From positions 4,691 through 68,690 of the forward strand of contig CAYRUF010000018.1 of NCBI GenBank assembly GCA_964427375.1: a stretch of 64,000 nt of DNA. The letters run 5' to 3'. A model generated the notes under the pieces. That model saw only the letters and a program-made list of their open reading frames with translations, was not told where the DNA came from and searched no databases. This stretch comes from an uncultured Desulfatibacillum sp. Lineage in GTDB: Bacteria > Desulfobacterota > Desulfobacteria > Desulfobacterales > SpSt-501. The position numbers and the translations under genes were made by a program. Below, piece by piece: positions 10,154 to 35,640 of this stretch; the stretch's first letter is position 1; each line of letters begins with the position of its first letter.

Positions 10154-12067
<1,914 letters not shown>

Positions 12068-12801: not shown

Positions 12802-12803
12802 CT

Positions 12804-12884
<81 letters not shown>

Positions 12885-18713: not shown

Positions 18714-19277
18714 ATGCATCAACTGGGATTGGTCCTGTTTTGCTGGCTTGCGGTGGGCTGTATCCAGAACACTTACAACATCACGCCTGAATTTCACAGC
18801 AGCGGATCGGTGAATATCGACAGCCGCGTCGATGCCGACGACCCGCGGGTCACCGTGACCGTCGACGACGTCACCATGGATTGGAAGGAACTAAAGGAGA
18901 TGGTCGAAAAGAAGATGGCGGCCATGCCCAAAGAGGCTCCGGAGAAGACTCTGCTCGGCGCCGCCTCTGCGCCTGCGACCGCAGCACCGCCGGATCCCAA
19001 GGTTGTGCCGCCGCCTTCACCAGAGCCGGCCCGGATGACCCATTCGGTTCAGGTCGGGGCCTATCGCCAGCTCGAAAACGCCGAGCAGCAGGTTTCGAAA
19101 CTCGCATCCAAGGGCTACCCCGCCCGGATGGTCCGGTTCGAGGACTCCCGGAAGCGGACCTGGTACACGGTGCGCATCGGGGACTTCCCCGATGCGACAG
19201 CGGCGCGGAGCGCGGCGGACGAGTTCACCTACCGCGAACGGATGCCGAGCGCGGTGCGGCCGATCGGAAGCCTTTGA
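18714..19277 (+). CDS. SPOR-domain lipoprotein
   Basis: The signal peptide has a lipobox (LAVGC). A Pro/Ala-rich linker follows, then a C-terminal SPOR-like domain (HSVQVGAYRQLENAEQQVSKLASKGYPARMV...WYTVRIGDF). A GGAGGAG RBS is present. Confidence 0.8.
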   Translation: MHQLGLVLFCWLAVGCIQNTYNITPEFHSSGSVNIDSRVDADDPRVTVTVDDVTMDWKELKEMVEKKMAAMPKEAPEKTLLGAASAPATAAPPDPKVVPPPSPEPARMTHSVQVGAYRQLENAEQQVSKLASKGYPARMVRFEDSRKRTWYTVRIGDFPDATAARSAADEFTYRERMPSAVRPIGSL

Positions 19278-19301
19278 ACCCGGTCTTGTTTTGAATGACC
19301 T

Positions 19302-19341
19302 GCCGCTTGTGCTTGTCCGCATGCGCAAGCGGCTTTTTTTT
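19302..19341 (+). terminator. Intrinsic terminator after the SPOR gene
   Basis: The hairpin pairs GCCGCTTG with CAAGCGGC and is followed by a run of 8 T (19334-19341). Confidence 0.7.
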
Positions 19342-19361
19342 GATACAAAACGATCCATTTA

Positions 19362-19378
19362 TGAAACTCATTGTTTCA
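19362..19378. promoter_or_regulatory. Palindromic operator/UAS candidate TGAAAC-N5-GTTTCA upstream of tcuA
   Basis: This is a perfect 6+6 inverted repeat in an AT-rich patch, about 85 nt upstream of the -24 element candidate. The same GAAAC-N5-GTTTC core recurs at 26548-26562. Confidence 0.4.
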
Positions 19379-19452
19379 ATGACATCATCATGTCGAACCG
19401 GCCTAAAACTATTCAAATTGATATTTCAATTAGTTAGCAGGCTGGAGCGCCC

Positions 19453-19468
19453 TGGTACGATGTTGGCA
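19453..19468 (+). promoter_or_regulatory. Sigma-54 (-24/-12) promoter candidate for tcuAB
   Basis: TGGTAC-GATGT-TGGC keeps the invariant GG-N10-GC spacing, with two deviations from TGGCAC-N5-TTGC. It is about 57 nt upstream of the tcuA ATG. Confidence 0.45.
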
Positions 19469-19524
19469 GAGCCTTGGTTCTATCGAACTCCAGTTGGTCA
19501 TGCCAATCCATCAAGGTGACTGCG

Positions 19525-20958
19525 ATGAAACCTGAAGATTCTGCGGTGCCGAACCTCTCCCGGGTATACGACGTGCTCGTCGTCGGCGGCGGCAACGCGG
19601 CGTTGTGTGCGGCCATGACCGCCCGGGAAGCGGGCGCGAGCGTGCTGCTGCTCGAAAGCTCGCCCCGGGAATTCCGGGGCGGCAACAGCCGCCACACGCG
19701 CAACCTGCGCTATTTCCACGACAGCGGCAACCGGCACTTGACCGGGCCTTACCTCGAGGACGAGTTCTGGAACGACCTGCTGCTGGTGACCAAAGGCCGG
19801 ACCAACGAGGATCTGGCCCGCTTCGCCATCCGCGAGTCCAAGAACATCGGGATGTGGATGGAACAGCACGGCTGCCGGTTCCAACCCGCCATGCGCGGAA
19901 CCCTGCATCTGGCCCGCACGAACGCCTTCTTCCTGGGGGGCGGCAAGGCCCTCATGAACGCCTACTACGCGACCGCCGAGCGCCTGGGGGTGGCGATCCT
20001 CTACGAGGCCACCGTCGAGGATCTCGAGATCCGCGAGGGTCTCTTCGCCTCGGCGGCGTTCGATCACCGCGGGGTCCGGCGCACGGCCCGGGCCCGGGCC
20101 GTGGTGCTCGCCTCCGGCGGCTACCAGGCCAACCTGGAGTGGCTGAAGCAGTCCTGGGGGCCGCCGGCCGAGAATTTCATCATTCGGGGCACCCCGTACG
20201 ACAAGGGCCGTATGCTGCGGGTGATGCTGGACCAGGGCGCGCAGCCGGTCGGCGACCCGCGGCAGGGCCATGCGGTCGCGATCGACGCCCGGGCGCCCAA
20301 GTTCGACGGGGGCATCGTCACGCGTCTGGACTGCGTGCCGTTCGGGATCGTCGTCAACCGCGACGCCCGGCGGTTCTACGACGAGGGCGAGGAGTTCTGG
20401 CCCAAGCGCTACGCCATCTGGGGGCGGCTCGTCGCGCAGCAGCCGGATCAGATCGCCTACTGTCTCATCGACGCCAAATCGATCGACCTGTTCATGCCCT
20501 CGGTGTTTCCGCCGATCGAGGCCGGCTCCATCGGCGAGATGGCGCTCCGGCTGAAGCTCGATCCGGCCGCACTGGTCGACACCGTGCAGGCCTTCAACGC
20601 CGCCACCCGGCCGGGCGCCTTCGACCCGGCCGCGCTGGACGGTTGCAGGACGGAGGGGATCGAGCCGGCCAAAAGCCACTGGGCGCGGCCCCTGGACACC
20701 CCGCCGTTCTACGCCTATCCCCTGCGTCCCGGGATCACGTTCACCTACCTGAGTCTGACCGTGAACCGGCGGGCCCAGGTGATCCTGCAGGGCGGTGCGC
20801 CGGCGGAGAATATTTTCGCGGCGGGCGAGATCATGTCCGGCAACATTCTGGGCCAGGGCTACATGGCCGGCTTCGGGATGACCATCGGCACGGTGTTCGG
20901 CCGGATCGCCGGAAAGGAGTCGGTGCGCTATGTCGTCGAGCGTCTTAAAAGAAGCTGA
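19525..20958 (+). CDS. tcuA: FAD-dependent tricarballylate dehydrogenase TcuA
   Basis: YDVLVVGGGNAALCAAMTAREAGASVLLLESSPREFRGGNSRHTRNLR and HLARTNAFFLGGGKALMNAYY closely resemble Salmonella TcuA as I remember it. The start is at ATG 19525. Confidence 0.88.
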   Translation: MKPEDSAVPNLSRVYDVLVVGGGNAALCAAMTAREAGASVLLLESSPREFRGGNSRHTRNLRYFHDSGNRHLTGPYLEDEFWNDLLLVTKGRTNEDLARFAIRESKNIGMWMEQHGCRFQPAMRGTLHLARTNAFFLGGGKALMNAYYATAERLGVAILYEATVEDLEIREGLFASAAFDHRGVRRTARARAVVLASGGYQANLEWLKQSWGPPAENFIIRGTPYDKGRMLRVMLDQGAQPVGDPRQGHAVAIDARAPKFDGGIVTRLDCVPFGIVVNRDARRFYDEGEEFWPKRYAIWGRLVAQQPDQIAYCLIDAKSIDLFMPSVFPPIEAGSIGEMALRLKLDPAALVDTVQAFNAATRPGAFDPAALDGCRTEGIEPAKSHWARPLDTPPFYAYPLRPGITFTYLSLTVNRRAQVILQGGAPAENIFAAGEIMSGNILGQGYMAGFGMTIGTVFGRIAGKESVRYVVERLKRS

Positions 20959-22030
20959 TCGGGTGATGACCATCTGCAACGCCTGCCGCTACTGCGAGGG
21001 GTTCTGTGCGGTGTTTCCGGCCATGGAGCTGCGCCGGACCTTCACGGCGGCCGATCTCAACTACTTCGCCCATCTCTGCCACAACTGCCGCGGCTGCTAC
21101 TATGCCTGCCAGTACGCACCGCCGCACGAGTTCGACCTGAACGTGCCGAGGGCGCTGGGCGAGCTCCGGCTCGCGACCTACGCGCAGTTCAGCTGGCCCT
21201 CGGCGCTGAAGGGGATGTTCCCGAACAACGGCTGGGTGGTGGGGCTGGCGGCCGCGCTGAGCGTGGCGCTCGTCATGCTGCTGACCCTGCTTTTCAAGGG
21301 CCATGCGGCTTTTTTCGGGGTTCATACGGGCGCCGGCGCCTTCTACCGGGTGGTGCCCTACGCGGCCATCCTGCTGCCGTTCACGGCCCTGGGGGTCTTC
21401 ATTCTCTTCAGCCTCTGGAAAGGGGCCGCCAACCTCTGGCGCGCAACCGGCGGGCAGCCGTTGGAGCTGCGCGATCTGAAAGCGCACCGCCAGGCGGTCT
21501 GGGACGTGCTGCGGCTGCGCTACCTCGAGGGCGGGGGCGACGGGTGCAACTATCCGGGCGAGCGCTTCAGCATGACCCGGCGTTATTTCCACCACGCCGT
21601 CTTCTACGGATTCATGCTGTGCCTGGCGTCCACGACCATCGCCTTCTTCTACGACCATTTCCTGGGCCGGCCGGCGCCGTACCCCTTCTGGAGCTGGCCG
21701 GTGGTCCTGGGGACCGTGGGCGGTCTGGCGCTGCTCGCCGGCAGCGGCGGGATGCTCTATCTGAAGAAGCGCATGGACCGGGCGCCGGCCTCGCCGGAGG
21801 GCTTCGGCATGGACATCGCCTTTACGGCGCTGCTCTTTCTGACCAGCCTCACGGGGATGCTGGTGCTCATGTTCCGGGAGACGGCCGCCATGGGCACCCT
21901 CCTGACGATCCACCTCGGCTTCGTGCTGGGGCTCTTCGTGAGCATGCCCTACGGCAAGTTCCTGCACGCCGTCTACCGGTATGCGGCCCTGGTCCGCAAT
22001 GCGCTGGAGCAGAAGCGCGGAGGGGTTTAG
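20930..22030 (+). CDS. tcuB: Tricarballylate utilization 4Fe-4S membrane protein TcuB
   Basis: Two Cys clusters are present (CNACRYCEGFCAVFP and CHNCRGCYYACQYAPPHEF), followed by multiple TM helices. The start is either 20930 (29-nt overlap with tcuA) or ATG 20966. Confidence 0.85.
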   Translation: MSSSVLKEADRVMTICNACRYCEGFCAVFPAMELRRTFTAADLNYFAHLCHNCRGCYYACQYAPPHEFDLNVPRALGELRLATYAQFSWPSALKGMFPNNGWVVGLAAALSVALVMLLTLLFKGHAAFFGVHTGAGAFYRVVPYAAILLPFTALGVFILFSLWKGAANLWRATGGQPLELRDLKAHRQAVWDVLRLRYLEGGGDGCNYPGERFSMTRRYFHHAVFYGFMLCLASTTIAFFYDHFLGRPAPYPFWSWPVVLGTVGGLALLAGSGGMLYLKKRMDRAPASPEGFGMDIAFTALLFLTSLTGMLVLMFRETAAMGTLLTIHLGFVLGLFVSMPYGKFLHAVYRYAALVRNALEQKRGGV

Positions 22031-22178
22031 CGGGTCCCTGCGGCCATTGGCGAGGTGCCCGCCGATGGAGTGTTTCCCCTGTGGGAGCGGCTTCCAGCCA
22101 CGATCGCATCGCGGCAAGATGCCGCTCCCCCAAATAAGCGCCGTTCCGACCTGCTGCCCCCAAAAACCACCGAGACCC

Positions 22179-23261
22179 TTACCGCCCCCGCAGGGCCTCC
22201 TTCACGGCCTTGGCGACGAGCGGCGGGCCGCCGGTCACCGCGCCACCGGGCCGGAAGGAGAGGCGGCCCTGGGCATAGACCCGCCAGAGAGCAGCGGCGA
22301 TCATTTCGGCGGCCCCCGCTTCACCGAGGTGCGAGAGCATCATGGCCGCGGACAGGATCTGGGAGACGGGGTTCGCCAGGCGGCGGCCGGCGATGTCCGG
22401 CGCCGACCCGTGGATCGGCTCAAAGTAGGCGAGGCGCCCGCCGATATTGGCCGACGGGCACATCCCCAGGCCGCCGATGGTGGCGCCGCCGAGATCGCTC
22501 AGGATGTCGCCGAACAGGTTTTCGGTCACGATCACCTGGAAGTGATGGGGGCGGCTGACCAGCGCGGCCGCGGCGGCATCGACGTACAGGCATTCGGCCG
22601 CCACCTCCGGAAATTCTCCGGCCACTTTAAGGAAAATGCGGCGGAAGAAGGCAAAGGAGCGCAGCACGTTGCTCTTGTCGACGAGCGTGACCCGCCGGCG
22701 GCCGTCTTCCGGGGCGCCGCGCTTTTTCTCCAGGGCCGCTTTGAACGCAAACCGGGCGATGCGCTCGCAGCCGCGGGCGGTCAGGAGCAGGCTGTCCGTG
22801 GCTGCCTGGGGCGTCACCAGGCCCGCGCCCCGCGAGAGGTAGAGCCCCTCGGTGTTTTCGCGCACGATCACGTAGTCGATGTCGTCCGGCCCACGGCCGG
22901 ACAGCGGCGTGCCGGCATTCGGGTATAGTCGGATCGGCCTCACGTTGGCGTACAGATCGAACCCCACCCGCAGAATGCCGCCCAGGAGGCCGGCCTCGGT
23001 GCCGTCCGGTTGGCGCACGTCCGGCAGCCCCACCGGCCCCTTCAGAGTGGCGTCGGCCGTGCGAAAGGCCTCCAGGGCCTGCGCCGAGATGGCCTCGCCG
23101 GTGTCCCGGTAGCAGCCGGCGCCGGCCGGGTGATATTCGTAAGTCAGCGAAAACCCGCCGGAGAGCTCCTGAACCGCCTCGAGGACGTCTACGGCGGCGT
23201 CCACGATTTCAGGGCCGATCCCGTCGCCGGGCAGGACCAGGATGCGATAGGTCTTTTTCAT
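22179..23261 (-). CDS. Isocitrate/isopropylmalate dehydrogenase family oxidative decarboxylase (tartrate/IPM/homoisocitrate dehydrogenase-like)
   Basis: Family motifs are ILVLPGDGIGPEI, VRENTEGLY, NLFGDILSDLGG and HGSAPDIAG. Its start codon overlaps the stop of the upstream PrpF-family gene (ATGA). Confidence 0.85.
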   Translation of the reverse strand: MKKTYRILVLPGDGIGPEIVDAAVDVLEAVQELSGGFSLTYEYHPAGAGCYRDTGEAISAQALEAFRTADATLKGPVGLPDVRQPDGTEAGLLGGILRVGFDLYANVRPIRLYPNAGTPLSGRGPDDIDYVIVRENTEGLYLSRGAGLVTPQAATDSLLLTARGCERIARFAFKAALEKKRGAPEDGRRRVTLVDKSNVLRSFAFFRRIFLKVAGEFPEVAAECLYVDAAAAALVSRPHHFQVIVTENLFGDILSDLGGATIGGLGMCPSANIGGRLAYFEPIHGSAPDIAGRRLANPVSQILSAAMMLSHLGEAGAAEMIAAALWRVYAQGRLSFRPGGAVTGGPPLVAKAVKEALRGR

Positions 23262-24415
23262 TCTTCGAAACAGCGCTCGGGCACCAGCACGCTGCCCTCC
23301 ATCAGGCGCCGGGCGGTGCGCCCCAGCACCGCTTCCCGGTAATCGAGTCCGCCCCCGCAGGTTTCGATCACGGCGCCGACCTCGATGACGCCGCCGGGAT
23401 GCCCGATGCGCAGGAGGTCCCGGCCGCGCGCGCTCTCGGAGAGCAGATCGCTGACGACCGTACCCGGGATCATGGCCGCGCCGGCGGTGGCGACCGCGCC
23501 GCTGACGGCATAGGTGCGGTGCAGGGTCCCCATGGACATCATGCGGGCCAGCAGATCCACGTCGCCGGATTCGATCAGGCGCCCGTTCAGCGCGGGGTAG
23601 GATCGGGGCGCCGCGACCATGGCTACTTTGGGAACGGCCTGGCTGCGCCGGGTGGCTTCTTCCTCGGTGGCGGTGATTCCCAGCACGACCGCGGCGCGGC
23701 AGCGCACGGCCTCCAGCTTGGATTTGATCTCGGCGCTGTGCTCGATCGGCTCGGTCTCGTTCCCCTGCAGACCTAAAGACTCGGCGCGGACGAACACGAA
23801 GGGGTTGGCGGCGTCGACGCAGGAGACCTCCACGGCGCCCAGCCCGGCGATGGCGAAGCGGTCCCGGCGGTTTCCCGTCGGAAAAAGCCTGCCCGTGACG
23901 GCGCCGGCGGGATCCACGAAGCGCAACAGGATGCGCGATCCCGTTCCAGGCACGCCGTCAATGGCGTACGCCCCATTGGGGTCGAAGGCGCCATCCCGGA
24001 CCGGGACCTCGGCGATGATGAGCTTGTCCGTGTTCTTCTGGTGGATGCGCACACGGGTCAGGGGCTCGACAGCCGCCACCAGGCCTTCGTCCACCGCAAA
24101 GGGTCCCACAGCGGAAGACATGTTGCCGCAGTTGCCTTGGTAGTCCACGATCGGCCGGTCGATGGACACCTGGCCGAACTGATAGACCACATCGTAATCG
24201 GGGGAGGGCGAGGGGCTGATGACGGCGACCTTGCTGGTGACGCTCTGAGCGCCGCCGACGCCGTCGATCTGGCGGCGAAAGGGATCCGGGCTGCCGTAGG
24301 CGGCCAGGATCACCCGCTCGCGGGCCGCCGGGTCCGCCGGCAGATCCCTCTCATGGAAGAACAAGCCCTTGCTGGTGCCGCCGCGCATTAATACGGCCGG
24401 AATGCGCTTCTGCAT
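23258..24415 (-). CDS. PrpF-family isomerase (2-methylaconitate / aconitate cis-trans isomerase family)
   Basis: IPAVLMRGGTSKGLFFHERDLP, GSPDPFRRQIDGVGGAQSVTSKVAVI and the GNCGN motif are present. The start is at ATG 24415, preceded by AGGAGGA; the ORF track extends to 24493. Confidence 0.85.
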   Translation of the reverse strand: MQKRIPAVLMRGGTSKGLFFHERDLPADPAARERVILAAYGSPDPFRRQIDGVGGAQSVTSKVAVISPSPSPDYDVVYQFGQVSIDRPIVDYQGNCGNMSSAVGPFAVDEGLVAAVEPLTRVRIHQKNTDKLIIAEVPVRDGAFDPNGAYAIDGVPGTGSRILLRFVDPAGAVTGRLFPTGNRRDRFAIAGLGAVEVSCVDAANPFVFVRAESLGLQGNETEPIEHSAEIKSKLEAVRCRAAVVLGITATEEEATRRSQAVPKVAMVAAPRSYPALNGRLIESGDVDLLARMMSMGTLHRTYAVSGAVATAGAAMIPGTVVSDLLSESARGRDLLRIGHPGGVIEVGAVIETCGGGLDYREAVLGRTARRLMEGSVLVPERCFEE

Positions 24416-24510
24416 GTCGTCCTCCTGCTCATGGCATTTCCCGATCGGATCGAAACGGCGGGTTGAAGCCGTCTGCCGTTTGCCTGGCCGCAAACCGCCA
24501 AACTCAACCG

Positions 24511-24527
24511 AGCAAGAAAAGTGCCAC
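24511..24527 (-). promoter_or_regulatory. Sigma-54 promoter (consensus -24/-12) for the PrpF-family/dehydrogenase operon
   Basis: The minus strand reads TGGCAC-TTTTC-TTGCT, an exact match to TGGCAC-N5-TTGC. It lies about 95 nt upstream of ATG 24415 and next to a sigma-54 activator gene. Confidence 0.8.
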
Positions 24528-24588
24528 CGGCCGGCACGCTCTCCTGTCCGCGCACTCGAGGCCCCCCCGGGCTTTCTTTCGATCCGGG

Positions 24589-26526
24589 CTAGCCATCCAG
24601 CCCCAGAGCCTTCATCTTGCGCCAGAGGGTCGTTCGGCTGATTCCGAGTTGTTCAGCCGTCTGGCTCAAGCGGTAGCGGGAATTTCGGAGGGCCTCCTGG
24701 ATGATGGCTTTTTCGTTCTGGAGGATCTTCTCACGCACGTGAGACTTGAAGGCCGCCGGCGCCTGAGGGGCAGCGGCCGGGGCCGTGCCGCCCGCAACGC
24801 CGCTGAACTGGATCAACTCGTGGTAGAGAATTTCCAACATGTCCGGGCTGCACCTCAAACTGCAATTCAGCACCAGCCGTTCGGCGAAATTCTTGAGCTG
24901 GCGGACGTTCCCCGGCCAGGCGTATCGCTGCAAGCGGTTGATGTATCCCGGGGGGAGGCGGATCGGCTCGATCTGCTGGCGGTCCGAGAACGATCGGATG
25001 AAGAAATCGAGCAGCACCGGAATGTCTTCCTGGCGCTGCCGCAGGGCCGGGATCTGGATGCGCAGGACGTTGAGCCGGAAGAAGAGGTCGGGCCGGAACT
25101 GGCCCTCCTGGAGCGCGGCGTTCAGGTCGCGGCTGGCCGCGGCGATGACGCGCACGTCGACCGGTATGATGCGGTCGCCGCCGACGCGCATGACCTCCCG
25201 CTCCTGCAGCACGCGCAGCAGGCGGATCTGCATGGCTTCGGGTGTCGAGTCGATTTCGTCCAGGAAGATCGTGCCCTGATGGGCGAGTTCGAAGCGCCCC
25301 GGCTTGCCGCCGCGCTTGGACCCCGTGAAGGCGCCTTCCTCGTGCCCGAAGAGCTCGCTCTCCAGCAGCTGCTCGGGCAGCGCCGCGCAGTTGATGGAGA
25401 CGAAGGGGAAGCGGCTGCGGCGGCTCAAGTCGTGGATGCCCTGGGCGAAGATCTCTTTGCCCGTGCCGGTCTCGCCCATCACGAGAATCGTGGAATCCGT
25501 GCGGGCATATTGCTTGCCGAGTTCCACGACCTCGCGCATGGCCGGGCTGACGTGGACCAGTTCCTTGAGCTTGTATTTTGCCACCAAGCCGGCCGACAGG
25601 GAGCGGCGCACCACGTTTTCCGTGCGCATCACGTTGCCGATGTCCCGAAAGGTGGATACCGCGCCGATGGCCTCGCCGTCCAGCAGGATGGGCAGGTGGT
25701 TGAAAATGAACCGGCCGTCCCGGATTTGGCCGAGGCGGTCCTGGATCGACGTCCGGCTGTTCAAGATCTGCGGAATGGGGCTTTCCGGCAGAAGGTTGTG
25801 GACGGGCTGTCCGAGGGCTTCGGACTCCCCGATTTGGAGGGCCTTGAGGGCGGCGGCATTGGCGGCGGTGATGCGGCCGCGGGCATCGACCGCGACGATG
25901 CCGTCGGAGGCCGCATCGATGATGGCCCGGTAGCGCCGCGCCATGGCCTTCTGCTCGCGCCCGGCCAGCGCCACCGAGACGGCGTTGTCCAGAGTGGCGG
26001 AGATGTCCTCGTCCGAGGTGCGGATTTCGACGAACGTCAGGCCGATCGCTTCAGCGATCCGCTGCGTGACGCCCCCGCCGACGACGGCATCGCAGCCCTG
26101 GCGCCGGGCTCGGATGATGGCCTTCTCCAGGCTGGGCATGTCCCGATAGACTTTCTGGACGAGCTCGATGTTCAGGAGCTCCTCTACGATCGCGATGCCG
26201 CCCATCTCCTGGCGGAACACCGGGAACAGAACGCGCCGGGCGGCCCGGGCGGCGGCCTTGAGGCTGATGAGGATATCCAGGGAGCGGTGCGGAAAAGAGA
26301 TCACCGGAATGCGCAGGTTTTCCCGGAGCAGGTGGGCCGTGCCGCGGCGGCCGACAGCCACTTCGATCCCCTCGCGCTCCATTTCGGATGCAATCGCGAC
26401 CGCCTCTTCCAATCCATGGGTGTCGACCCGGATTTCGATTTGGCGATGAGTGCTGAGGGCCTGGATACGGCCCATCAGGGAAGGGCTGGAAGCAAAAACG
26501 CCGATACTGACTTTTTTGGGCTGCAT
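24589..26526 (-). CDS. Sigma-54-dependent transcriptional activator with PrpR-type N-terminal domain, PAS, AAA+ and Fis-type HTH
   Basis: The PrpR_N-like start is IGVFASSPSLMGRIQAL...VAVGRRGTAHLLRENLRIPVISF. The AAA+ core has GETGTGKE, GAFTG and ESELFGHE. The C-terminal HTH is LSQTAEQLGISRTTLWRKMK. Confidence 0.9.
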   Translation of the reverse strand: MQPKKVSIGVFASSPSLMGRIQALSTHRQIEIRVDTHGLEEAVAIASEMEREGIEVAVGRRGTAHLLRENLRIPVISFPHRSLDILISLKAAARAARRVLFPVFRQEMGGIAIVEELLNIELVQKVYRDMPSLEKAIIRARRQGCDAVVGGGVTQRIAEAIGLTFVEIRTSDEDISATLDNAVSVALAGREQKAMARRYRAIIDAASDGIVAVDARGRITAANAAALKALQIGESEALGQPVHNLLPESPIPQILNSRTSIQDRLGQIRDGRFIFNHLPILLDGEAIGAVSTFRDIGNVMRTENVVRRSLSAGLVAKYKLKELVHVSPAMREVVELGKQYARTDSTILVMGETGTGKEIFAQGIHDLSRRSRFPFVSINCAALPEQLLESELFGHEEGAFTGSKRGGKPGRFELAHQGTIFLDEIDSTPEAMQIRLLRVLQEREVMRVGGDRIIPVDVRVIAAASRDLNAALQEGQFRPDLFFRLNVLRIQIPALRQRQEDIPVLLDFFIRSFSDRQQIEPIRLPPGYINRLQRYAWPGNVRQLKNFAERLVLNCSLRCSPDMLEILYHELIQFSGVAGGTAPAAAPQAPAAFKSHVREKILQNEKAIIQEALRNSRYRLSQTAEQLGISRTTLWRKMKALGLDG

Positions 26527-26547
26527 CGCAGGCTCCTGGTCGGATGC

Positions 26548-26562
26548 GAAACATTGTGTTTC
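26548..26562. promoter_or_regulatory. Palindromic operator/UAS candidate GAAAC-N5-GTTTC in the regulator/tctC divergent region
   Basis: GAAACATTGTGTTTC has the same half-sites and spacing as 19363-19377. It is 22 nt from the regulator ATG and followed by a second palindrome, CATAAA-N6-TTTATG, at 26562-26579. Confidence 0.4.
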
Positions 26563-26667
26563 ATAAACTGAACTTTATGTCAATCCGCTTGAACATCGCC
26601 CAGCGCGGATCCGGCTCGCAGCCCGGCCAATCGGGCCGGGCGCGGGCGGCGACGGTTCAGCTGGCTT

Positions 26668-26683
26668 TGGCATGAATCCTGAA
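26668..26683 (+). promoter_or_regulatory. Weak sigma-54 promoter candidate upstream of tctC
   Basis: TGGCAT-GAATC-CTGA has a good -24 element, but the -12 element reads TGA instead of TGC. Confidence 0.25.
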
Positions 26684-26696
26684 ACAGCGCTCGATG

Positions 26697-26725
26697 TTGA
26701 CAAACTTAAGTGCTTCCAACATACT
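26697..26725 (+). promoter_or_regulatory. Sigma-70-type promoter candidate upstream of tctC
   Basis: TTGACA at 26697-26702, a 17-nt spacer, then CATACT at 26720-26725. Confidence 0.35.
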
Positions 26726-26822
26726 CACGCCCAACAACGATTTCCTTGAAAACGGCCTCGTCGAAAGCCATATGGGCGGCCGTTTCACCCGGCACGCTCA
26801 ACTCAAACAGGGAGGGGGCAAC

Positions 26823-27794
26823 ATGAAAAAGATCATCTGCTTCATCGCATCGGTAGTTTTCCTTCTGGGGGCTCTTCCGGGGCTTAACGCCGCGGCGGCC
26901 GAGTATCCGGAAAGGGCCATCGAAATCCTCGTCCCCTTCGGGGCCGGCGGCGGCAGCGACACGGCTGCGCGGGCGGTGGCGGAGGGGCTGAAGCCCCAGC
27001 TCAAAAACGGACTGGTGGTGAACAACATGCCGGGCGGCGGCGCGACCAAAGGCATGCTCTATGCCTCTCAGCAGCCGGCCGACGGCTACACGGTGCTCGC
27101 CATCACCACCTCGCACCTCATCGACGCGGCCAAGCCCAAGACGCGCGCGCACATCCTGCGGGACTTCGACCCGCTGTGCCGGATCCAGTGGGACACCTCG
27201 GCGGTGACCATCTCCGCCGATTCCCCGCACCAGACGTTTGCCGAGCTCGTGGAGTTCGGGAAGAAAAACCCCAAGGCCCTGAAATTCGCGGGCACGTCGC
27301 CGGGCGGCTGGTCGGAGATCCAGACCGTGGCGTTTTTCAAGAAGTCCGGTGTGGAGGTGACGTTCGTTCCATTTGACTCGGGTGCGGAGATCAAGGCGGC
27401 CATTCTGGGCGGCCACATCACCGGAGCCGTAGAAGAACTGGCCGAGACGCTGCCGCTGATCGAAGCCGGCAAGCTGAAGTCGCTCTGCGTCATCATGGAC
27501 AAACGCCATCCGGCCCTGCCGAACGTGCCCTGCTCCAAGGAACTGGGCATCGACTACACCCATGGGCTGATGCGCGCCTGGGGCGTCAAGAAAGGCACCC
27601 CGCCGGAGCGTCAGAAATTCCTGGTGGACGCCATCCGGAAGTCGCTGGACCATCCGATGTATGTGAAATTCATCAAGGACAACCATCTGGATGCGCGGCC
27701 GGGCTACCTGGGGCCGGAGGAAACCCGCAAGTACATGGAAGAGCAGGTGGAGTTCTTCACGTCGGTCCTCAAGGAACTGGGGTACCTGAAGTAA
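26823..27794 (+). CDS. tctC: Tripartite tricarboxylate transporter substrate-binding protein TctC (Bug family)
   Basis: The signal peptide is MKKIICFIASVVFLLGALPGLNAAAA, followed by YPERAIEILVPFGAGGGSDTAAR, typical of Bug/TctC. The start is at ATG 26823 after GGGAGGGGG. Confidence 0.9.
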   Translation: MKKIICFIASVVFLLGALPGLNAAAAEYPERAIEILVPFGAGGGSDTAARAVAEGLKPQLKNGLVVNNMPGGGATKGMLYASQQPADGYTVLAITTSHLIDAAKPKTRAHILRDFDPLCRIQWDTSAVTISADSPHQTFAELVEFGKKNPKALKFAGTSPGGWSEIQTVAFFKKSGVEVTFVPFDSGAEIKAAILGGHITGAVEELAETLPLIEAGKLKSLCVIMDKRHPALPNVPCSKELGIDYTHGLMRAWGVKKGTPPERQKFLVDAIRKSLDHPMYVKFIKDNHLDARPGYLGPEETRKYMEEQVEFFTSVLKELGYLK

Positions 27795-27870
27795 ACGGGC
27801 AGGGGGTTGGCCCCATCCGAGGATGCGGGGAGGCGACTTTCCCGCATCCGCCACCAAAGGCAGGCCGCCA

Positions 27871-28377
27871 ATGAAAACGGGTGAGATGGTCTTTTTCGCC
27901 GTATGCGTCGCCTTTTTCGGCTTCATGTTTTACGAGGGATTGGACCTGGCGACTCATGGCCGGGCAGGGGAAATCGGCAGCGGCCTCTGGCCGCTGATTT
28001 CTCTCGGAGCCTCCTTTCTTTTTAGCCTTGCGCTTCTGACCGCCAGCCTCCGAAAGGCCCGGCGGGAACTTGGCGCCGGCATCGACGATACGCCGGAGGC
28101 CATGGTTGAGAAGAAGCGGCAGCGGCTCACCGTCACGCTGAGCGTGGTCTGTTTTCTCGTTTACATGGCGGTGATTCCCTGGATCGGGTTCATTCTCTCC
28201 ACTCTGCTCTACATTCCGGCCTTCGCCCTCGCACTGGGCGAACGACGGAAGTGGGTGCTCTTCGTCGCACCCTTCTTGCTCACCGCCGTCATCGTCGCCG
28301 TGTTCGCGAAGTTCATCACGATCCCCTTTCCGAAGGGGGTCGGGTTCTTCGCCGAGTTCAGCCGCCTGTTCTACTAG
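27871..28377 (+). CDS. tctB: Tripartite tricarboxylate transporter small membrane subunit TctB
   Basis: It is a 168-aa, four-TM protein located between tctC and tctA. The start is at ATG 27871. Confidence 0.75.
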   Translation: MKTGEMVFFAVCVAFFGFMFYEGLDLATHGRAGEIGSGLWPLISLGASFLFSLALLTASLRKARRELGAGIDDTPEAMVEKKRQRLTVTLSVVCFLVYMAVIPWIGFILSTLLYIPAFALALGERRKWVLFVAPFLLTAVIVAVFAKFITIPFPKGVGFFAEFSRLFY

Positions 28378-28396
28378 GTCGAGGAGGGATGCCGAC

Positions 28397-29890
28397 ATGG
28401 TTGACATTTACCTGCAGGCCTTTGCAACGGTCCTGATGCCGCAGAACCTGATCGCGATGGTGCTGGGCGCCCTCTGGGGCTTGCTGGCCGGCGCGCTTCC
28501 GGGCATCAGCACCTCCATGGGCGTGGTCCTTCTGCTTTCGTTTACGTACACGCTCTCGCCGATGACGGCCTTCGTCCTGCTGATCGGAGCCTATCTGGGA
28601 GGCATCACCGGCGGCTCCATCACTTCGATCCTCTTCGGCATTCCGGGCGAACCCTCCTCGGTGCCCACGGTGATCGAGGGGCATTCGCTCGCCAAACAAG
28701 GCCGCGCCGCCTACGCCATGTGGGTGTACCTGCTCTGCTCGATCTTCGGAGGCCTTTTCAGCGTCTTCGTCATGATCCTGGCCACGCCGCTGATCGCCAA
28801 TTTCGCCCTGCGCTTCGGCCCGGCGGAGTATTTCGCGCTGACCGTGCTCGGCTTGAGCGTGGTGTCGGGCCTGTCGGGCGGGTCGATGCAGAAAGGCTTC
28901 CTGTCCTGTTTCTTCGGCTTGTTTTTAGCCACCGTCGGCACCGACGGGATTACGGGCGAAGAGCGCTTTACGTTCGAAACCGTCACGCTGCTGGGCGGAA
29001 TCAACTTCGTGGTGGCCATGGTGGGCCTGCTGGCCGTCTCCGAGATCTTCATCGAGGCGGAGGAGCCCTTCAAGGAATACAAGGGGGGGGTGCAATACCG
29101 GGGGCTGCTCAAGGAAATGCCGCCGCTCTCCTTATTCAAGAAATACCTGCTGACGATGGTGCGCTCCCCGATCATCGGGACCATCGTCGGCGCGCTGCCG
29201 GGCGCCGGGGCTACCATCGCCGCTTTTCTGGCCTACGGCGAGGCCGCCCGCACCGCCAAGCACGAACCGGAGAAGTTCGGCAAGGGCGCGGTGGAGGGGC
29301 TGATGGCCGCCGAATGCGCCAACAACGCCTCCACCGGCGGATCCATGACCGTTCTGCTCTCCCTGGGGCTGCCCGGCAGCAACACCACGGCCATGCTGGT
29401 GGCGGCCTTCATGATCCACGGCATGCAGCCGGGACCCCTGCTGCTGACTCAGCGGCCGGACGTCGTCTACGGGATCTTCGCGGCCATGCTGCTCACGAAC
29501 CTGCTGCTGCTCGTGCTGACGGGCACGGCGATCCGGCTCTTCTTGGAGCTGAACCGGCTGCCCTACTCGGTCTTCTCGGCGGCGATCATGATACTCTGCG
29601 TCATCGGCGCCTTCGGGCTCAACAACAGCGTAGACGATCTTTTCCTGATGTTCGCTTTCTCCGTGATCGGCTACTTCATGCGCAAGTTCGGAGTGCCGGT
29701 GGCGCCGTGCATCCTGGCCTTGGTTCTGGGAGATCTGGCGGAGCTCTCCCTCCGCCGGGCGCTGCTGCTCTCGGGCGGGAGCCCCCTCGGCCTGGTCAGC
29801 AGCCCGATCAGCGTGGTCCTGCTCGCGGGCGCGCTGTTCTCGATCGTCTATCCGATGTTCAAGAAGCCCAAAATGCTCGAGGGGGCGTGA
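28397..29890 (+). CDS. tctA: Tripartite tricarboxylate transporter large permease TctA
   Basis: It is a 497-aa polytopic protein with LPGISTSMGVVLL, GALPGAGATIAAFLAYGEA and ECANNASTGGSM motifs. A GAGGAGGGA RBS is present. Confidence 0.92.
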   Translation: MVDIYLQAFATVLMPQNLIAMVLGALWGLLAGALPGISTSMGVVLLLSFTYTLSPMTAFVLLIGAYLGGITGGSITSILFGIPGEPSSVPTVIEGHSLAKQGRAAYAMWVYLLCSIFGGLFSVFVMILATPLIANFALRFGPAEYFALTVLGLSVVSGLSGGSMQKGFLSCFFGLFLATVGTDGITGEERFTFETVTLLGGINFVVAMVGLLAVSEIFIEAEEPFKEYKGGVQYRGLLKEMPPLSLFKKYLLTMVRSPIIGTIVGALPGAGATIAAFLAYGEAARTAKHEPEKFGKGAVEGLMAAECANNASTGGSMTVLLSLGLPGSNTTAMLVAAFMIHGMQPGPLLLTQRPDVVYGIFAAMLLTNLLLLVLTGTAIRLFLELNRLPYSVFSAAIMILCVIGAFGLNNSVDDLFLMFAFSVIGYFMRKFGVPVAPCILALVLGDLAELSLRRALLLSGGSPLGLVSSPISVVLLAGALFSIVYPMFKKPKMLEGA

Positions 29891-29892
29891 TC

Positions 29893-31827
29893 ATGGGGAG
29901 GACCATCGTCGAAAAAATACTGCAGGCCCATTTGCGTGAAGGCGACTACGTGCCCGGCCGCGAGATCGCCGTCGGAATCGACCAGACGCTCGTGCACGAC
30001 GCCACCGGCACCATGGCGTTCCTGCAGTTCGAAGCCCTCGGCGTCGACGCCATCCGGACGGAGCGGTCGGTGACCTACATCGACCACAACACCCAGCAGA
30101 TCGGCTTCGAGAACAGCGACGACCACCTCTACCTGCAGAGTGTCTCCGCCAAATTCGGCGCCGTGTATTCGCGCGCCGGCAACGGGATCTGCCACCAGGT
30201 GCATCTCGAGCGGTTCGGGCGGCCCGGAACGACCCTGCTCGGCGCCGACAGCCATACCCCCACCGGCGGCGGCATCGGCCAGATCGCGATCGGCGCCGGC
30301 GGTCTGGACGTGGCCGTGGCCATGGGGGGCGGTTCGTTCCGCCTCGCCTGCCCCCGGGTCTACCTGGTCCAGCTAGCGGGAAAGCTCTCGCCCTGGGTGT
30401 CGGCCAAGGACGTCGTGCTGCACCTCTTGTCCCTGCTCACCACCAAGGGCAACGTGGGGGTGGTGCTCGAGTACGGCGGGGAGGGGGTCCAAAGCCTCGG
30501 CGTTCCCGCCCGGGCCACGATCGCCAACATGGGCGCGGAAATGGGGGTGACCACCTCGATTTTCCCGTCGGACGAGACCACCCGGACGTTTCTGAAGGCC
30601 CAGGGGCGTGAGAAGGATTGGGTGGAGCTGAGGGCGGACCCCGGTGCGCGTTACGACCGGGTCATCGAGGTCGACCTGGCGGCGCTCGTGCCCCTGGTGG
30701 CGGCCCCGCACAGCCCGGGCAACGTCATGAAGCTGGCGGAGGTCGAAGGCCTGAAGGTCGACCAGGTGTGCATCGGCTCCTGCACCAACTCTTCCTACCG
30801 GGACATGATGACGGCGGCCGCAATGCTGCGCGGGCGGACCATCGCCCGGGGCATCAGTCTGGGCGTTGCCCCCGGCTCGCGCCAGATCCTGCGGACGCTC
30901 GCCGGCAACGGAGCGCTCGACGACCTCATCGGCGCGGGCGCGCGCATCCTGGAGAGCGCCTGCGGGTTCTGCGTGGGCGTGCACTTCTCGCCGAAGAGCG
31001 GCGGGGTCTCCGTGCGGACCTCGAACCGCAATTTCGAGGGCCGCTCCGGCACCCGGGACGCGCAGGTCTATCTGTGCAGCCCGGAGGCGGCCGCCGCCGC
31101 CGCGATCACGGGCCGGCTCACGCTGCCGGAGCGCCTGGAAATGGCCTGCCCGCAGATTCAGGAGCCGGACGTCTATCGGATCGACGACAGCATGTTCCTT
31201 TTCCCCGGCGCGGATGCCAAAAATGTCCAGGTCCTGCGGGGACCCAACATCGGCGAGCCGCCGCGCAGCGAAAAGATGGCCCCGGCGCTCGCCGGCCGCG
31301 TCATGATCAAGCTCGGCGACCACATCACGACCGACCACATCACGCCCGCCGGCGCGCGGCTGAAATACCGCTCGAACGTGCCCAAATACGCCGAGTTCGT
31401 CTTCGAGCACATCGATCCGTCGTTTGCCCGGCGCTGCCTGGAGAACAAGGCCCAGGGGGTGCACAACGTCATCGTGGCGGGGGAATCCTACGGCCAGGGC
31501 TCCAGCCGCGAGCACGCTTCGATGTGCCCGATGTACCTGGGCGTCAAGGCGGTGGTCGCCAAATCGTTCGAGCGGATCCACTCCGCCAATTTGGTCAATT
31601 TCGGTATCTTGCCGCTGGTGCTGCGGAACCCGGCCGACTTCGACGGAATCCGGCCGGACGACGGCCTGAGCGCAGCGAACTGGCGCGAGGCCGTCGCCAA
31701 GGGCGAAGCGATCGTCCTGCGCAACGAGCGCTGCGGGGCCGCGATCGAGTGCGCCTGTGCGCTGTCCGCCCGGCAGATCGACGTGGTTTTGGCCGGCGGG
31801 CTGTTGAACTACATCACGTCCGCCTGA
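29893..31827 (+). CDS. Aconitase-family hydratase (644 aa, fused large + swivel domains)
   Basis: [22 protein letters not shown] and CGFCVG are the three 4Fe-4S Cys-ligand regions, and [13 protein letters not shown] marks the C-terminal swivel domain. The start is at ATG 29893, 2 nt after the tctA stop. The ORF track N-terminal extension (from 28720) overlaps tctA out of frame. Confidence 0.9.
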
Positions 31828-31856
31828 CGAGACCGCGCGGACCAGGAGAACCCACC

Positions 31857-33059
31857 ATGGCCAAGATCAAAGTGACCACCCCCATCGTCGAGCTGGACGG
31901 CGACGAGATGACCCGCATCATCTGGGCGATGATCAAGGAAAAACTGATCCTGCCCTTCCTCGAGGTGGACCTGAAATACTTCGACCTCGGCGTGCGGAAG
32001 CGCGACGAAACCGACGACCACATCACCACCGAGGCCGGGCAGGCCATCCAGCACTACGGGGTCGGGGTCAAGTGCGCCACCATCACCCCCGATGCCGAAC
32101 GCGTCAGCGAATACCGCCTCAAGAAGGAATGGCCGTCGCCCAACGGCCAGATCCGCTCGATTCTGGACGGGACGGTTTTCCGCAAACCCATCATCGTGCG
32201 CAACATCACTCCGGCCGTGCGCAGCTGGAAAAAACCCATCATCATCGGCCGGCACGCCTACGGCGACATCTACCGGGGAGTCGAACTGAAGGTGGGCCGG
32301 CCCGGCAAGGTGGAGTTGGTCTACACGCCGACGGACGGGCCGGAGAGCCGGGTGCTGGTGCATGATTTCAAGGGCCCCGGCGTGGTCATGGGCATCCACA
32401 ACCTGGAGAAGTCCATCCGCTCCTTTGCCCGATCCTGCATCACTTACGCCCTGAGCGAACGCATCGACCTGTGGTTCTCGATGAAGGACACCATCAGCAA
32501 GACATACCACGCCTTCTTCAAGGCTGTTTTCGCCGAGGAGGCGGCTGCGCGCCAGGCCGATTTCGACCGGGCCGGGATTCGGTACCGCTACATGCTCATC
32601 GACGACGCCGCCGCCCAGATGATGAAAAGCGAAGGCAACATGCTCTGGGCGGTGAGCAACTACGACGGCGACGTTTTTTCGGATGTGGTGGCTTCGGGCT
32701 TCGGCAGCCTGGGAATGATGACTTCGGTGCTGGTGTCCCCGGACGGCAGGTTCGAGTTCGAGGCCGCGCACGGCACGGTGCGGCGGCACTACTACGAACA
32801 CCTCAAGGGCCGTCCCACGAGCACCAATTCGGTGGCCTCGATCTTCGCCTGGACGGGCGGCATCAAGAAGCGCGGGGAGCTGGACGGCACGCCGGCGGTG
32901 GCCGCCTTTGCGGAGAGGATCGAACAGGCCGTCATCGGCTGCATCGAGGCGGGCATCGTCACCAAAGACCTCGTGCCGCTCATGGACCCCCGGCCCGCCG
33001 GCTATCAGAGCACGGAGGGGTTCATCGACGCCGTGGCGGAGCGGTTGGCGGCTTCGTAA
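31857..33059 (+). CDS. icd: NADP-dependent isocitrate dehydrogenase (eukaryote-like ~400-aa type)
   Basis: [35 protein letters not shown] and [11 protein letters not shown] are typical of type II homodimeric IDH. The start is at ATG 31857. Confidence 0.93.
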
Positions 33060-33216
33060 TCCGGCTGAACTCGGCCAGGTGCGTCATCCGGTCGCCACCG
33101 CGGCGCAGGGAAATCACGCCTCGGCAGGCGGGATGCCCGCGCCGGCAAACCGGCCGTCATAGAACGCCGGGGTCGAACCGGCTCTTCGGCGGCCGTCCGC
33201 GAGCCGGATCCGCGCA

Positions 33217-34614: not shown

Positions 34615-35640
34615 TTATCGAAAGGGCGGCGCCGGAACGCGGATCCGTTCGAGGAGCGTGTCGACCTCCGGCCGGCTGCCCGTCGCCACGGATCGGGTGA
34701 TGCAGGAATTGCTGACGCCGAGATGGCGCGCCACTTCCGCTCCCGAATAGCCGACCTCCCGAACGGCAATCCAGGCCACCGTGTAGCGCGCCATGACCAC
34801 CGGCCGGCGCCGGCTTCCGGAGCACAGCTCGCCGAGTGAGACCCCGTGGCCGTCGCAGATTTGGCGGCAGATGCGGTCCAGATCCGGCCGCGCCGTGGAC
34901 AGCCTCAGATTTTGGCGCTGGCGGTCGCTCAGCCGATCGATGACGGCGCGAACGAAGTCGTCGTCGCCGAGAATTCTCTGATCGCCGGCCGGCGCTGCGC
35001 TGCGCCGCCGCAGCGCCCGGACGGCCGACCATTCTCCCTGGGCACGAACCAGCCCGCCGCCGACCAGTTCCGGTTTTCGCCCGATCCCGACGCCGGCGCG
35101 CATGAAACGACCATAGGCGCGCCGGCCCTGATAACGGTTTCCCCCGAATCTGGCGAGCACGTAATCGATGTCCTGCCAGGGTCGCTCAACCCGGCCGATG
35201 ATGGCGCTGTGCCCGCAGTAGGGGTAATTCGCGAGCGCCTCCAGACTATTGACCAGGCCGGCGCGCAAGGGGTTGAGATGAATGTAGCGGACAAGCTCCT
35301 TGAGATAGGGATCCTCCTGGCAGACCATCGATTTGAACCGGTTTTGGAACAAGTGGCCGTGGCGGCGGCGGCGCCTGTTGAAGTTGACGGCGTAGCCGGT
35401 CAGCAGCCGGTGCATGCTGATGGACAGCGGCTGGAGGCGGGTCTTGCAGAGCAGGTGAAAATGGTTCGGCATCAACGCCCAGGCGAAGATATCCACCGCC
35501 CCGCCGAGGGCTAAACCGGCGAGCCGGTCGATAAAATCGGCGCGGTCCGCATCGTTCCGGAAGATCATGCGCCGCTCGATGCCGCGGCCGATTACATGAT
35601 GCAGCACGCCTGAAGCGTCTATCCGCGAGGATCTGGGCAT
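34615..35640 (-). CDS. HUH/Y1 (IS200-RayT-like) transposase-family protein fused to a DnaA-C-type helix-turn-helix domain
   Basis: The HUH motif is PNHFHLL and the catalytic-Tyr helix is VRYIHLNPLRAGLV. The C-terminus (RRPVVMARYTVAWIAVREVGYSGAEVARHLGVSNSCITRSV) resembles DnaA domain IV. I saw no IS ends, so it is called as a CDS rather than a mobile element. Confidence 0.75.
   Translation of the reverse strand: MPRSSRIDASGVLHHVIGRGIERRMIFRNDADRADFIDRLAGLALGGAVDIFAWALMPNHFHLLCKTRLQPLSISMHRLLTGYAVNFNRRRRRHGHLFQNRFKSMVCQEDPYLKELVRYIHLNPLRAGLVNSLEALANYPYCGHSAIIGRVERPWQDIDYVLARFGGNRYQGRRAYGRFMRAGVGIGRKPELVGGGLVRAQGEWSAVRALRRRSAAPAGDQRILGDDDFVRAVIDRLSDRQRQNLRLSTARPDLDRICRQICDGHGVSLGELCSGSRRRPVVMARYTVAWIAVREVGYSGAEVARHLGVSNSCITRSVATGSRPEVDTLLERIRVPAPPFR

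Follow-up and report, generated by a model that had tools for sequence, protein, structure and literature searches.

In Salmonella, tricarballylate is oxidized by the products of tcuRABC: TcuA forms cis-aconitate, which is fed to aconitase, and TcuB acts as an FADH2:quinone oxidoreductase (PMC10468695; PMC5630845). Related acids are handled by other described systems, among them the Salmonella transporter TctCBA (TctI) with its adjacent TctDE, the 2-methylcitrate-sensing σ54 activator PrpR of the prpBCDE regulon, and TarA and TbrA, two PrpF-family proteins that are aconitate isomerases (PMC11495376). Here we analyze a 64,000-nucleotide stretch of contig CAYRUF010000018.1 (assembly GCA_964427375.1; hereafter the window) from an uncultured Desulfatibacillum sp., in which ten genes between 19525 and 33059 bring together tcuAB, a PrpF-family isomerase, a second dehydrogenase of the isocitrate/isopropylmalate family, a PrpR-like activator, tctCBA, an aconitase, and an isocitrate dehydrogenase (IDH). 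We posit that they form a chromosomal regulon that serves to take up and oxidize C6 tricarboxylates, with tricarballylate and cis/trans-aconitate as the main substrates and citrate/isocitrate as possible further ones, and we hold this proposal with somewhat better than even confidence; the substrates are those that we infer from the predicted enzymes.

In the proposed route, TctCBA would import a C6 tricarboxylate, TcuA would dehydrogenate tricarballylate to cis-aconitate and pass the electrons via TcuB to the quinone pool, and the isomerase would interconvert trans- and cis-aconitate, both making trans-aconitate usable and removing an aconitase inhibitor. The co-transcribed aconitase would then hydrate cis-aconitate to isocitrate, and the NADP-dependent IDH would convert the latter to 2-oxoglutarate. 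The activator, through its PrpR_N and PAS domains, would sense a tricarboxylate, bind GAAAC-N5-GTTTC operators, and activate σ54 promoters that serve tcuAB, the PrpF-like/dehydrogenase pair, and, probably, tctCBA-acn-icd. Every part can be placed in a known family, the arrangement recombines such parts, and current understanding is not overturned. An earlier note, made from the letters of the window alone, had reached a similar interpretation, which our results partly support.

TcuAB, the transporter operon, and their linkage in relatives

Genes were called by third-position GC (the window has ~64% G+C), confirmed with profile searches, and checked for identity against Pfam and NCBIfam equivalog cut-offs; the Pfam scan of the window took in 44 open reading frames (ORFs), namely the 10 cluster genes and 34 flanking ones, with several smaller ORFs outside the scan. 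The positions given in the earlier note proved correct for all ten genes, as well as for the ATGA overlap, the gaps of 2 and 29 nt, and the perfect −24/−12 promoter. The tcuA product (19525-20958, + strand), an FAD-dependent tricarballylate dehydrogenase by its NCBIfam TcuA equivalogs, scores far above their cut-offs (NF006130, 688 bits versus 369; TIGR02485, 596 versus 373) and is 59% identical to a Salmonella plasmid TcuA and 64-66% identical to Paracoccus TcuA. Because it passes the equivalog cut-off and shares 59% of its residues with the Salmonella plasmid protein, it is by sequence criteria a true TcuA orthologue, and placement in a different flavoprotein clade, which would have counted against the earlier note, is not what the comparison shows. 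Overlapping by 29 nt, tcuB (20930-22030, +) encodes a membrane Fe-S protein predicted to re-oxidize TcuA (TIGR02484, 415 bits versus a cut-off of 246.6), with an N-terminal CxxCxxCxxxC motif read in the translation. The intrinsic terminator of an upstream SPOR-domain gene (19310-19340, +; a stem-loop followed by a T-run) makes tcuAB a separate transcription unit.

The transporter operon, on the same strand, opens with tctC (26823-27794; PF03401, 128 bits), which encodes the periplasmic tricarboxylate-binding protein and whose start agrees with a 323-aa gene call in a related locus (L001). It is followed after 28 nt by tctB for the small membrane subunit (27823-28377; PF07331), whose true start may be 27871 (168 aa), as called in L001, and after another 19 nt by tctA for the large membrane subunit (28397-29890; PF01970, 478 bits). 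Just 2 nt downstream lies the gene for a 644-aa aconitate hydratase (acn, 29893-31827; PRK07229 equivalog, 888 bits versus a cut-off of 612) and, after a 29-nt gap with a GGAG ribosome-binding site, that for an NADP-IDH of the eukaryote-like type (icd, 31857-33059; PRK08299 equivalog, 620 bits versus 335).

The cluster thus resembles Salmonella tcuRABC in its adjacent, overlapping genes for orthologous TcuA (59%) and TcuB and in the predicted feeding of cis-aconitate to aconitase, but it includes neither the major facilitator superfamily (MFS) transporter TcuC nor the LysR-type TcuR; presumably, TctCBA takes over the uptake and the σ54 activator the control. In agreement with the claim that these two canonical partners are missing from the locus, no MFS or LysR domain occurs in the 44 scanned ORFs, several smaller ORFs lying outside that scan. 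Unlike its Salmonella counterpart, the cluster also includes the PrpF-family isomerase, the isopropylmalate dehydrogenase (IPMDH)-like enzyme, aconitase, and IDH, and resides in an anaerobic host; the label “anaerobic lineage” is reasonable because close homologues of the PrpF-like protein are annotated as Desulfobacterales metagenome-assembled genomes (MAGs). The protein itself, in identical form, was encountered on metagenome contigs only, two from Logan and one of 73 kb from NCBI. The transporter has all three TctI subunits in the same order, tctC-tctB-tctA, but its operon runs on into aconitase and IDH, an activator-type operator and a −24/−12-like element lie 5′ of it, and there is no adjacent TctDE, the divergent neighbor being the σ54 activator, in which no receiver domain was found.

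Which way electrons flow through TcuAB is not readable from the sequence, and the oxidative direction is one that we infer. TcuA, a member of FAD_binding_2, shares the flavoprotein fold of succinate dehydrogenase/fumarate reductase, and TcuB resembles QmoC in NCBIfam, so that the same genes could serve aconitate respiration or dismutation: TcuAB would run in reverse as a menaquinol:aconitate reductase, like fumarate reductase, and trans-aconitate, isomerized by the PrpF-like enzyme, would be in part reduced to tricarballylate as an electron sink and in part oxidized via aconitase and IDH. TcuAB has no partner more constant than the isomerase, and the reduction of aconitate by menaquinol should, on our own estimate by analogy with fumarate/succinate, be downhill; anaerobic rumen bacteria are described in PMC5630845, citing Russell 1985, as reducing trans-aconitate to tricarballylate. 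The sole characterized TcuAB, of which the window protein is an orthologue, nonetheless runs oxidatively, and an operon that couples a transporter to aconitase and IDH is more in keeping with assimilation than with a process that serves only as an electron sink; we therefore regard aconitate respiration as improbable.

Comparative genomics supports the unity of the locus. An alignment of PrpF-like orthologues was scanned against 185,579 species genomes, and the fetched loci (n = 140, numbered with the prefix L) were searched with the proteins of the window, supplemented by others taken from relatives. Linkage was counted over the 51 species loci whose PrpF-like orthologue is at least 55% identical, many of them on short contigs and nearly all from MAGs that carry a Desulfobacterota or Deltaproteobacteria annotation. 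Among these, 34 carry a tripartite tricarboxylate transporter (TTT), 24 TcuAB, 19 aconitase, 18 IDH, 19 a PrpR-like activator, and 16 the IPMDH-like gene; at least one partner gene is present in 44 of the 51, and in 8 of them Tcu, TTT, aconitase, and IDH all lie within 10 kb. In 29 loci whose PrpF-family genes are more distant, TcuAB is absent throughout. That the three units belong together, as had been proposed, is upheld by these associations.

Gene order, in contrast to gene content, is fluid, L030 being a further example beside those that follow. In L034, a single strand bears, in order, the activator, the PrpF-like gene, tctCBA, a PrpD-like gene, acn, icd, and tcuAB; in the Desulfarculaceae loci L042 and L044, tctABC-icd-acn-tcuBA-IPMDH-like lies opposite the PrpF-like gene. 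A clade comprising L004, L012, L015, L018, and L019 has a 911-aa AcnA-type aconitase and a prokaryotic-type IDH with the isocitrate S-x-N motif, together with a binding protein so diverged that it escapes Pfam and was recognized only through weak similarity to a TTT binding protein in the PDB. Because the same functions are kept through rearrangement and non-orthologous replacement, they are likely to be functionally coupled, and we take the comparison as strong evidence, at the level of genome sequence, that the three units are one functional module; of the co-occurrence and synteny expected in relatives, the first is borne out and a fixed order is not. A second, independent scan anchored on aconitase led to the same result: orthologues of ≥72% identity have icd as the next gene in every case where the contig extends that far, and tctCBA is found next to them, in most cases immediately upstream. 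Beside acn-icd, the loci L098, L099, and L102 have a PrpF-family gene of a different subfamily (45% identity).

The enzyme set is broader than Desulfobacterota, since similar sets occur in Arthrobacter, Glutamicibacter, and Paracoccus. Plasmid p305818 of Paracoccus alcaliphilus, as annotated, has genes for TcuA (64%), TcuB, PrpF-family, Iso_dh-family, and TTT proteins within 15 kb, plus Ldh_2 and AbrB, as in L004-type Desulfobacterota clusters, and a D-2-hydroxyacid dehydrogenase; it differs in having GntR regulators and no aconitase or IDH in the cluster, and its PrpF-family and Iso_dh-family proteins, 41% and 39% identical to those of the window, may be paralogues. Arthrobacter and Glutamicibacter encode the PrpF-like/IPMDH-like pair at 53-58% identity with a LysR regulator, AbrB-family membrane proteins, a TctAB fusion, and a TTT binding protein of the diverged kind that is found in the L004 clade (39% identity), to which the Arthrobacter sp. 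260 cluster adds a distant TcuA-like flavoprotein and a D-2-hydroxyacid dehydrogenase; the actinobacterial TcuA-like flavoprotein is distant (33-37%) and has no TcuB. What is specific here is the σ54 activator with its operators and the joining of aconitase and IDH to the transporter operon. The suggestion of an undescribed system therefore stands for the arrangement, of which full-text literature searches found no published description, but not for the idea that a TcuAB/PrpF/Iso_dh/TTT combination is unique to anaerobes.

Two further sets of genes recur in relatives. An MmgE/PrpD-family protein is encoded between tctA and icd in one architecture (L035, 14684-16141; also L030, L034, L036, L037, and L102); it apparently replaces aconitase in L035-L037 and could be a citrate/methylcitrate dehydratase or an aconitate decarboxylase. 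AbrB-family (PF05145), Ldh_2, RraA-like, and D-2-hydroxyacid dehydrogenase proteins, absent from the window, repeatedly accompany TcuAB and the PrpF-like gene elsewhere (L004, 12392-12889 and 15525-17471; L054, 15931-18042; L140).

The PrpF-like isomerase and the IPMDH-like dehydrogenase

The PrpF-like protein (23258-24415, −; PF04303, 423 bits) is a candidate aconitate isomerase, a role that we assign from its linkage to TcuAB, aconitase, and IDH. It falls below the NCBIfam cut-offs for PrpF (TIGR02334, 354 bits versus 440.55) and OMA-tautomerase and is ~45% identical to annotated PrpFs. Its closest solved structure is 3-methylitaconate isomerase (Mii) of Eubacterium barkeri (3g7k, 357 bits), followed by PA0793 and then Shewanella PrpF; about half of its residues are identical to those of Mii, and the Lys62/Cys96 catalytic pair, invariant in the alignment of PrpF-like orthologues, aligns with the same positions in Mii and PrpF. 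Unlike the Mii gene, it has no other nicotinate-fermentation families among its cluster or scanned neighbors, its partners being tricarboxylate enzymes, and no acnD or prp genes are found in any of the 51 orthologous loci. As in TarR-TarAB of Bacillus velezensis and TbrAB of B. thuringiensis, a PrpF-superfamily isomerase would be combined with a dedicated transporter and would lead to the cis-aconitate of the tricarboxylic acid cycle, but the transporter families and the regulator are different, the isomerase has TcuAB, aconitase, and IDH as additional partners, and its identity to a TbrA-like PrpF-domain protein, encoded on a B. thuringiensis plasmid beside a DMT transporter, is 33%. An inverted repeat, GGTTTGC-ggccag-GCAAACG (24478-24498, −), lies between the σ54 promoter and the PrpF-like start codon, where it could form a hairpin in the leader or offer another site for protein binding.

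An ATGA overlap at 23258-23261 joins the PrpF-like gene to the gene for the IPMDH-like enzyme (22179-23261, −; PF00180 [Iso_dh], 307 bits), a β-decarboxylating dehydrogenase, suggesting translational coupling; the two are predicted to share a transcript from the σ54 promoter. The IPMDH-like protein reaches none of the NCBIfam equivalog cut-offs (best scores, 290 bits versus 393 and 263 versus 353), and database names of its orthologues are generic only. In alignments, its substrate loop (TEAGLLGGILR) corresponds to the Glu/Leu/Leu loop of IPMDH and is without the isocitrate S-x-N motif, whereas the IDHs embedded in related clusters read IRSVNVQLR; the loop PDGTEAGLLGGxLR is nearly invariant in orthologues from Desulfobacterota and Actinobacteria. 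A SAPDIAG motif suggests NAD as the cofactor. Two assignments were rejected: a second IDH, by the substrate loop without S-x-N, and LeuB, by the scores below cut-off and the absence of a leucine-biosynthesis context. A paper on methylsuccinate isomerase was also set aside, as it concerns a different protein family. Because the gene is present in just 16 of the 51 loci, we consider the enzyme accessory rather than a core terminal step, and its substrate is probably not isocitrate. The route to 2-oxoglutarate proposed earlier is accordingly sustained in the identities of TcuAB, aconitase, and IDH but offers no place to this dehydrogenase.

The pair could instead point to another substrate, such as itaconate, citraconate, methylsuccinate, or a C7 tricarboxylate: its dehydrogenation by the flavoprotein would be followed by a double-bond shift by the Mii-like isomerase, hydration by an enzyme of the aconitase family, and, as the terminal step, oxidative decarboxylation by the IPMDH-like enzyme. 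The closeness of the PrpF-like protein to 3-methylitaconate isomerase, an enzyme that also converts itaconate to citraconate, speaks for such a pathway, as do the near-invariant IPMDH-type loop in Desulfobacterota and Actinobacteria and the Arthrobacter cluster, where the pair occurs with TTT and a distant TcuA-like flavoprotein and without aconitase. These features have to be set against TcuA and TcuB that score far above tricarballylate-specific equivalog cut-offs, IDHs with the isocitrate S-x-N motif embedded in the cluster, and the restriction of the IPMDH-like gene to 16 of 51 loci, and we consider a different substrate for the whole cluster very unlikely. A broader possibility, to which we grant a small but real chance, is that the locus holds either an undescribed CoA-independent organic-acid branch built on the PrpF-like and IPMDH-like proteins or a TcuAB that acts as an aconitate reductase in these anaerobes. 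Such a branch could consist of substituted-succinate dehydrogenation, a double-bond shift, hydration, and oxidative decarboxylation, and its substrate would lie outside the tricarballylate-to-isocitrate line. The two proteins are kept together in Desulfobacterota and Actinobacteria, and the Paracoccus plasmid has more distant members of both families beside TcuAB; each of the three groups also has a TcuA-type flavoprotein and a TTT transporter, and some have AbrB, Ldh_2, or D-2-hydroxyacid dehydrogenase genes.

The σ54 activator, its predicted promoters, and candidate operators

The activator gene (24589-26526, −) encodes a σ54 enhancer-binding protein composed of PrpR_N, PAS, Sigma54_activat, and HTH_8 domains, whose AAA+ motifs, GETGTGKE (Walker A) and the GAFTGS loop, are read in the translation. 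With PrpR of the prpBCDE regulon it shares the PrpR_N domain, the AAA+ σ54 module, the Fis-type helix-turn-helix, and an adjacent consensus −24/−12 promoter, and its presumed ligand, a citrate-like tricarboxylate, is akin to the 2-methylcitrate sensed by PrpR. It differs from PrpR in scoring below the equivalog cut-offs (TIGR02329, 389 bits versus 499; PRK15424, 343 versus 703), in its extra PAS domain, and in its position co-directional with and just upstream of its target promoter rather than divergent from it; no prpB, prpC, prpD, or acnD families, and hence no prpBCDE/acnD set, are present among the 44 scanned ORFs.

That target promoter, TGGCACttttcTTGCT (24511-24526, −), is canonical and stands between the two genes, 62 nt from the stop codon of the activator gene and 96 nt from the ATG of the PrpF-like gene; read as TGGCACttttcTTGC (24526-24512, −), the same promoter is the sole zero-mismatch −24/−12 match in the 64 kb. 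A canonical promoter is kept, just after the activator stop, in 19 of 19 distinct loci in which the activator gene precedes the PrpF-like gene; in these loci, it conforms to TGGCA(C/T)-N5-TTGC(T/A) with two exceptions and is 30-195 nt away from the PrpF-like start. It is absent in 8 activator-less full-cluster loci; σ54 control of the PrpF-like/IPMDH-like unit is thus strongly supported by sequence conservation.

The candidate promoters of the other two units are non-canonical. For tcuAB, the σ54-type candidate TGGTACgatgtTGGCA (19453-19468, +), which reads TGGTAC-N5-TGGCA, keeps the GG-N10-GC spacing with two mismatches; near-consensus −24/−12 sites precede the tcuA unit in L004/L012 and L019, and L008 keeps TGGTACgatgtTTGAT. 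For tctCBA-acn-icd, the candidate TGGCATgaatcCTGAA (26668-26683, +), which reads TGGCAT-N5-CTGAA, has a perfect −24 element and TGA in place of TGC at −12. The corresponding pattern, TGGCAY-N5-MTGAW, has one match in the window versus 0.2 expected and 24 matches in the 140 fetched loci, of which 18 lie in the activator/transporter intergenic region and face away from the activator (17 other fetched loci plus L038, where the element faces tcuA); we consider the tctC element a probable non-canonical σ54 promoter. TGA-type −12 elements (e.g., L004, 7748-7763; L015, 7696-7711; L026, 2540-2555; L038, 2915-2930) make up a promoter family that is kept across diverged clades and always points away from the activator gene, and the TGA may alter the promoter's degree of activator dependence. 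Farther 3′ of the tctC element lies a σ70-like promoter, TTGACA-N17-CATACT (26697-26725, +), the sole σ70-type match in 19200-33400; both hexamers are invariant in the window clade (the window, L007, L008, and L010), and the type-B intergenic sequences examined show no counterpart. It may give basal, activator-independent expression of tctCBA-acn-icd. The σ54 wiring proposed for the whole locus is therefore firm for the PrpF-like unit and less so for the other two, with tctC also having the σ70-like element.

A shared palindrome suggests how the units may be connected. GAAAC-N5-GTTTC has exactly two matches in the 64 kb: an operator, or upstream activating sequence, GAAACtcattGTTTC (19363-19377), 76 nt 5′ of the −24/−12-like element of tcuA, and another, GAAACattgtGTTTC (26548-26562), 22 nt 5′ of the activator start codon in the divergent region common with tctC. 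By a position weight matrix built from related sites, they score 18.4 and 20.8, the latter the best in the window, and the next best unrelated site scores 12.1; a second, half-conserved site, TGAACtttatGTCAAT (26569-26584), belongs to the same 26548-26584 operator region. In most activator-bearing loci of both main clades, the palindrome lies 35-50 nt 5′ of the activator gene, and in L008, L015, and L018 it lies ~150-220 nt 5′ of tcuA. The layout of the activator/transporter intergenic region is fixed in both main clades: the palindrome, the half-conserved site ~22 nt on, and the TGGCAY element ~85-130 nt further. These patterns support a link, through a shared candidate operator, between tcuA and the activator/tctC intergenic region. 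The palindrome can be assigned to the activator only provisionally because no operator was found near the canonical PrpF-like promoter by exact, one- or two-mismatch, or weight-matrix search, and the pairing of operators with promoters and the choice of ligand are likewise provisional. In three activator-less loci, with no activator within 10 kb (L029, 9934; L058, 6179; L033, 9843), the palindrome is 67-158 nt 5′ of the PrpF-like gene, which implies that the regulator is encoded elsewhere or that another protein reads the site.

The mixed promoter evidence bears on whether tctCBA-acn-icd belongs to the regulon at all or is a mere neighbor of it, namely a largely constitutive housekeeping operon in which the sole aconitase and IDH, serving glutamate synthesis, are joined to a citrate/isocitrate importer, with tcuAB and the PrpF-like/IPMDH-like unit as a separate inducible system. 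The conserved σ70-like promoter and the tctC element without a −12 GC would fit such an operon; the order IDH, periplasmic-binding-protein gene, gdhA is kept in the close relatives L009, L091, and L095, and the 644-aa aconitase type is presumably the housekeeping form in some Desulfovibrio species. Yet aconitase and IDH stay with the PrpF-like gene, TcuAB, and TTT through rearrangement and replacement by other types, acn and icd lie co-directionally behind the PrpF-like σ54 promoter in L030 and L034, and the operator and TGGCAY-N5-MTGAW in the activator/transporter region are kept in both main clades. We accordingly doubt that the two systems are mere neighbors, an explanation to which we attach a low probability.

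Chromosomal setting and biological meaning

The region is core chromosome. Its flanks hold housekeeping genes (secA, clpA/B-like, selB, hldE, groEL, scpAB, tRNA synthetases, and bamA), and the GC content of the cluster resembles theirs; a mobile or foreign insert, which the word “island” in the earlier note could imply, was rejected on both counts. Beside the cluster lies a gene with a weak IS200-like Y1 transposase domain (34615-35640, −; 37 bits), possibly a REP-associated tyrosine transposase, and a similar 329-aa gene is found on the opposite side of the cluster in L006 (12445-13434). Farther away, a c-di-GMP-I riboswitch (983-1068, +; 77.7 bits) is located directly 5′ of an M23 peptidase gene (1193-2143), a small bacterial SET-domain protein of 142 aa is encoded at 45024-45452 (+; 82 bits), and selB (10154-12145, −), which implies selenoprotein use in the source organism, is followed by genes for tRNA-His and tRNA-Arg (12726-12884, +).

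Several considerations weigh against a tricarboxylate regulon as we propose it. All relatives found are MAGs. Menaquinone-linked oxidation of tricarballylate is, on our own estimate by analogy with succinate, probably energetically uphill for a sulfate reducer. The structure closest to the PrpF-like protein is that of a 3-methylitaconate isomerase, at 33% identity the protein appears to be no orthologue of TbrA (TarA lay outside the comparison), and the IPMDH-like enzyme has no role in the route. On the regulatory side, the −12 element of tcuA is off consensus, that of tctC is without its GC, the canonical PrpF-like promoter has no operator nearby, and tctCBA-acn-icd may be partly constitutive; the aconitase and IDH may simply be the sole copies of the cell. 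We nevertheless favor the regulon for C6 tricarboxylates for the reasons given above.

trans-Aconitate is abundant in grasses, and, to our knowledge, the identity of the consumers of tricarballylate in anoxic sediments is unsettled. Tricarballylate itself is a magnesium chelator that, according to cited work, is poorly degraded by the rumen flora. If our proposal is right, uncultured Desulfobacterales would be candidate anaerobic consumers of tricarballylate and aconitate, equipped with a route to 2-oxoglutarate in which the TcuAB core known from Salmonella has been rebuilt with another transporter and regulator and in which aconitase and IDH are fused to the transporter operon. The locus also defines a candidate operator and a family of σ54-type promoters with an unusual TGA at −12, and it flags a widely conserved isomerase/dehydrogenase pair without an assigned function. 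Should TcuAB turn out to be an aconitate reductase instead, aconitate would become a respiratory electron acceptor in these anaerobes.

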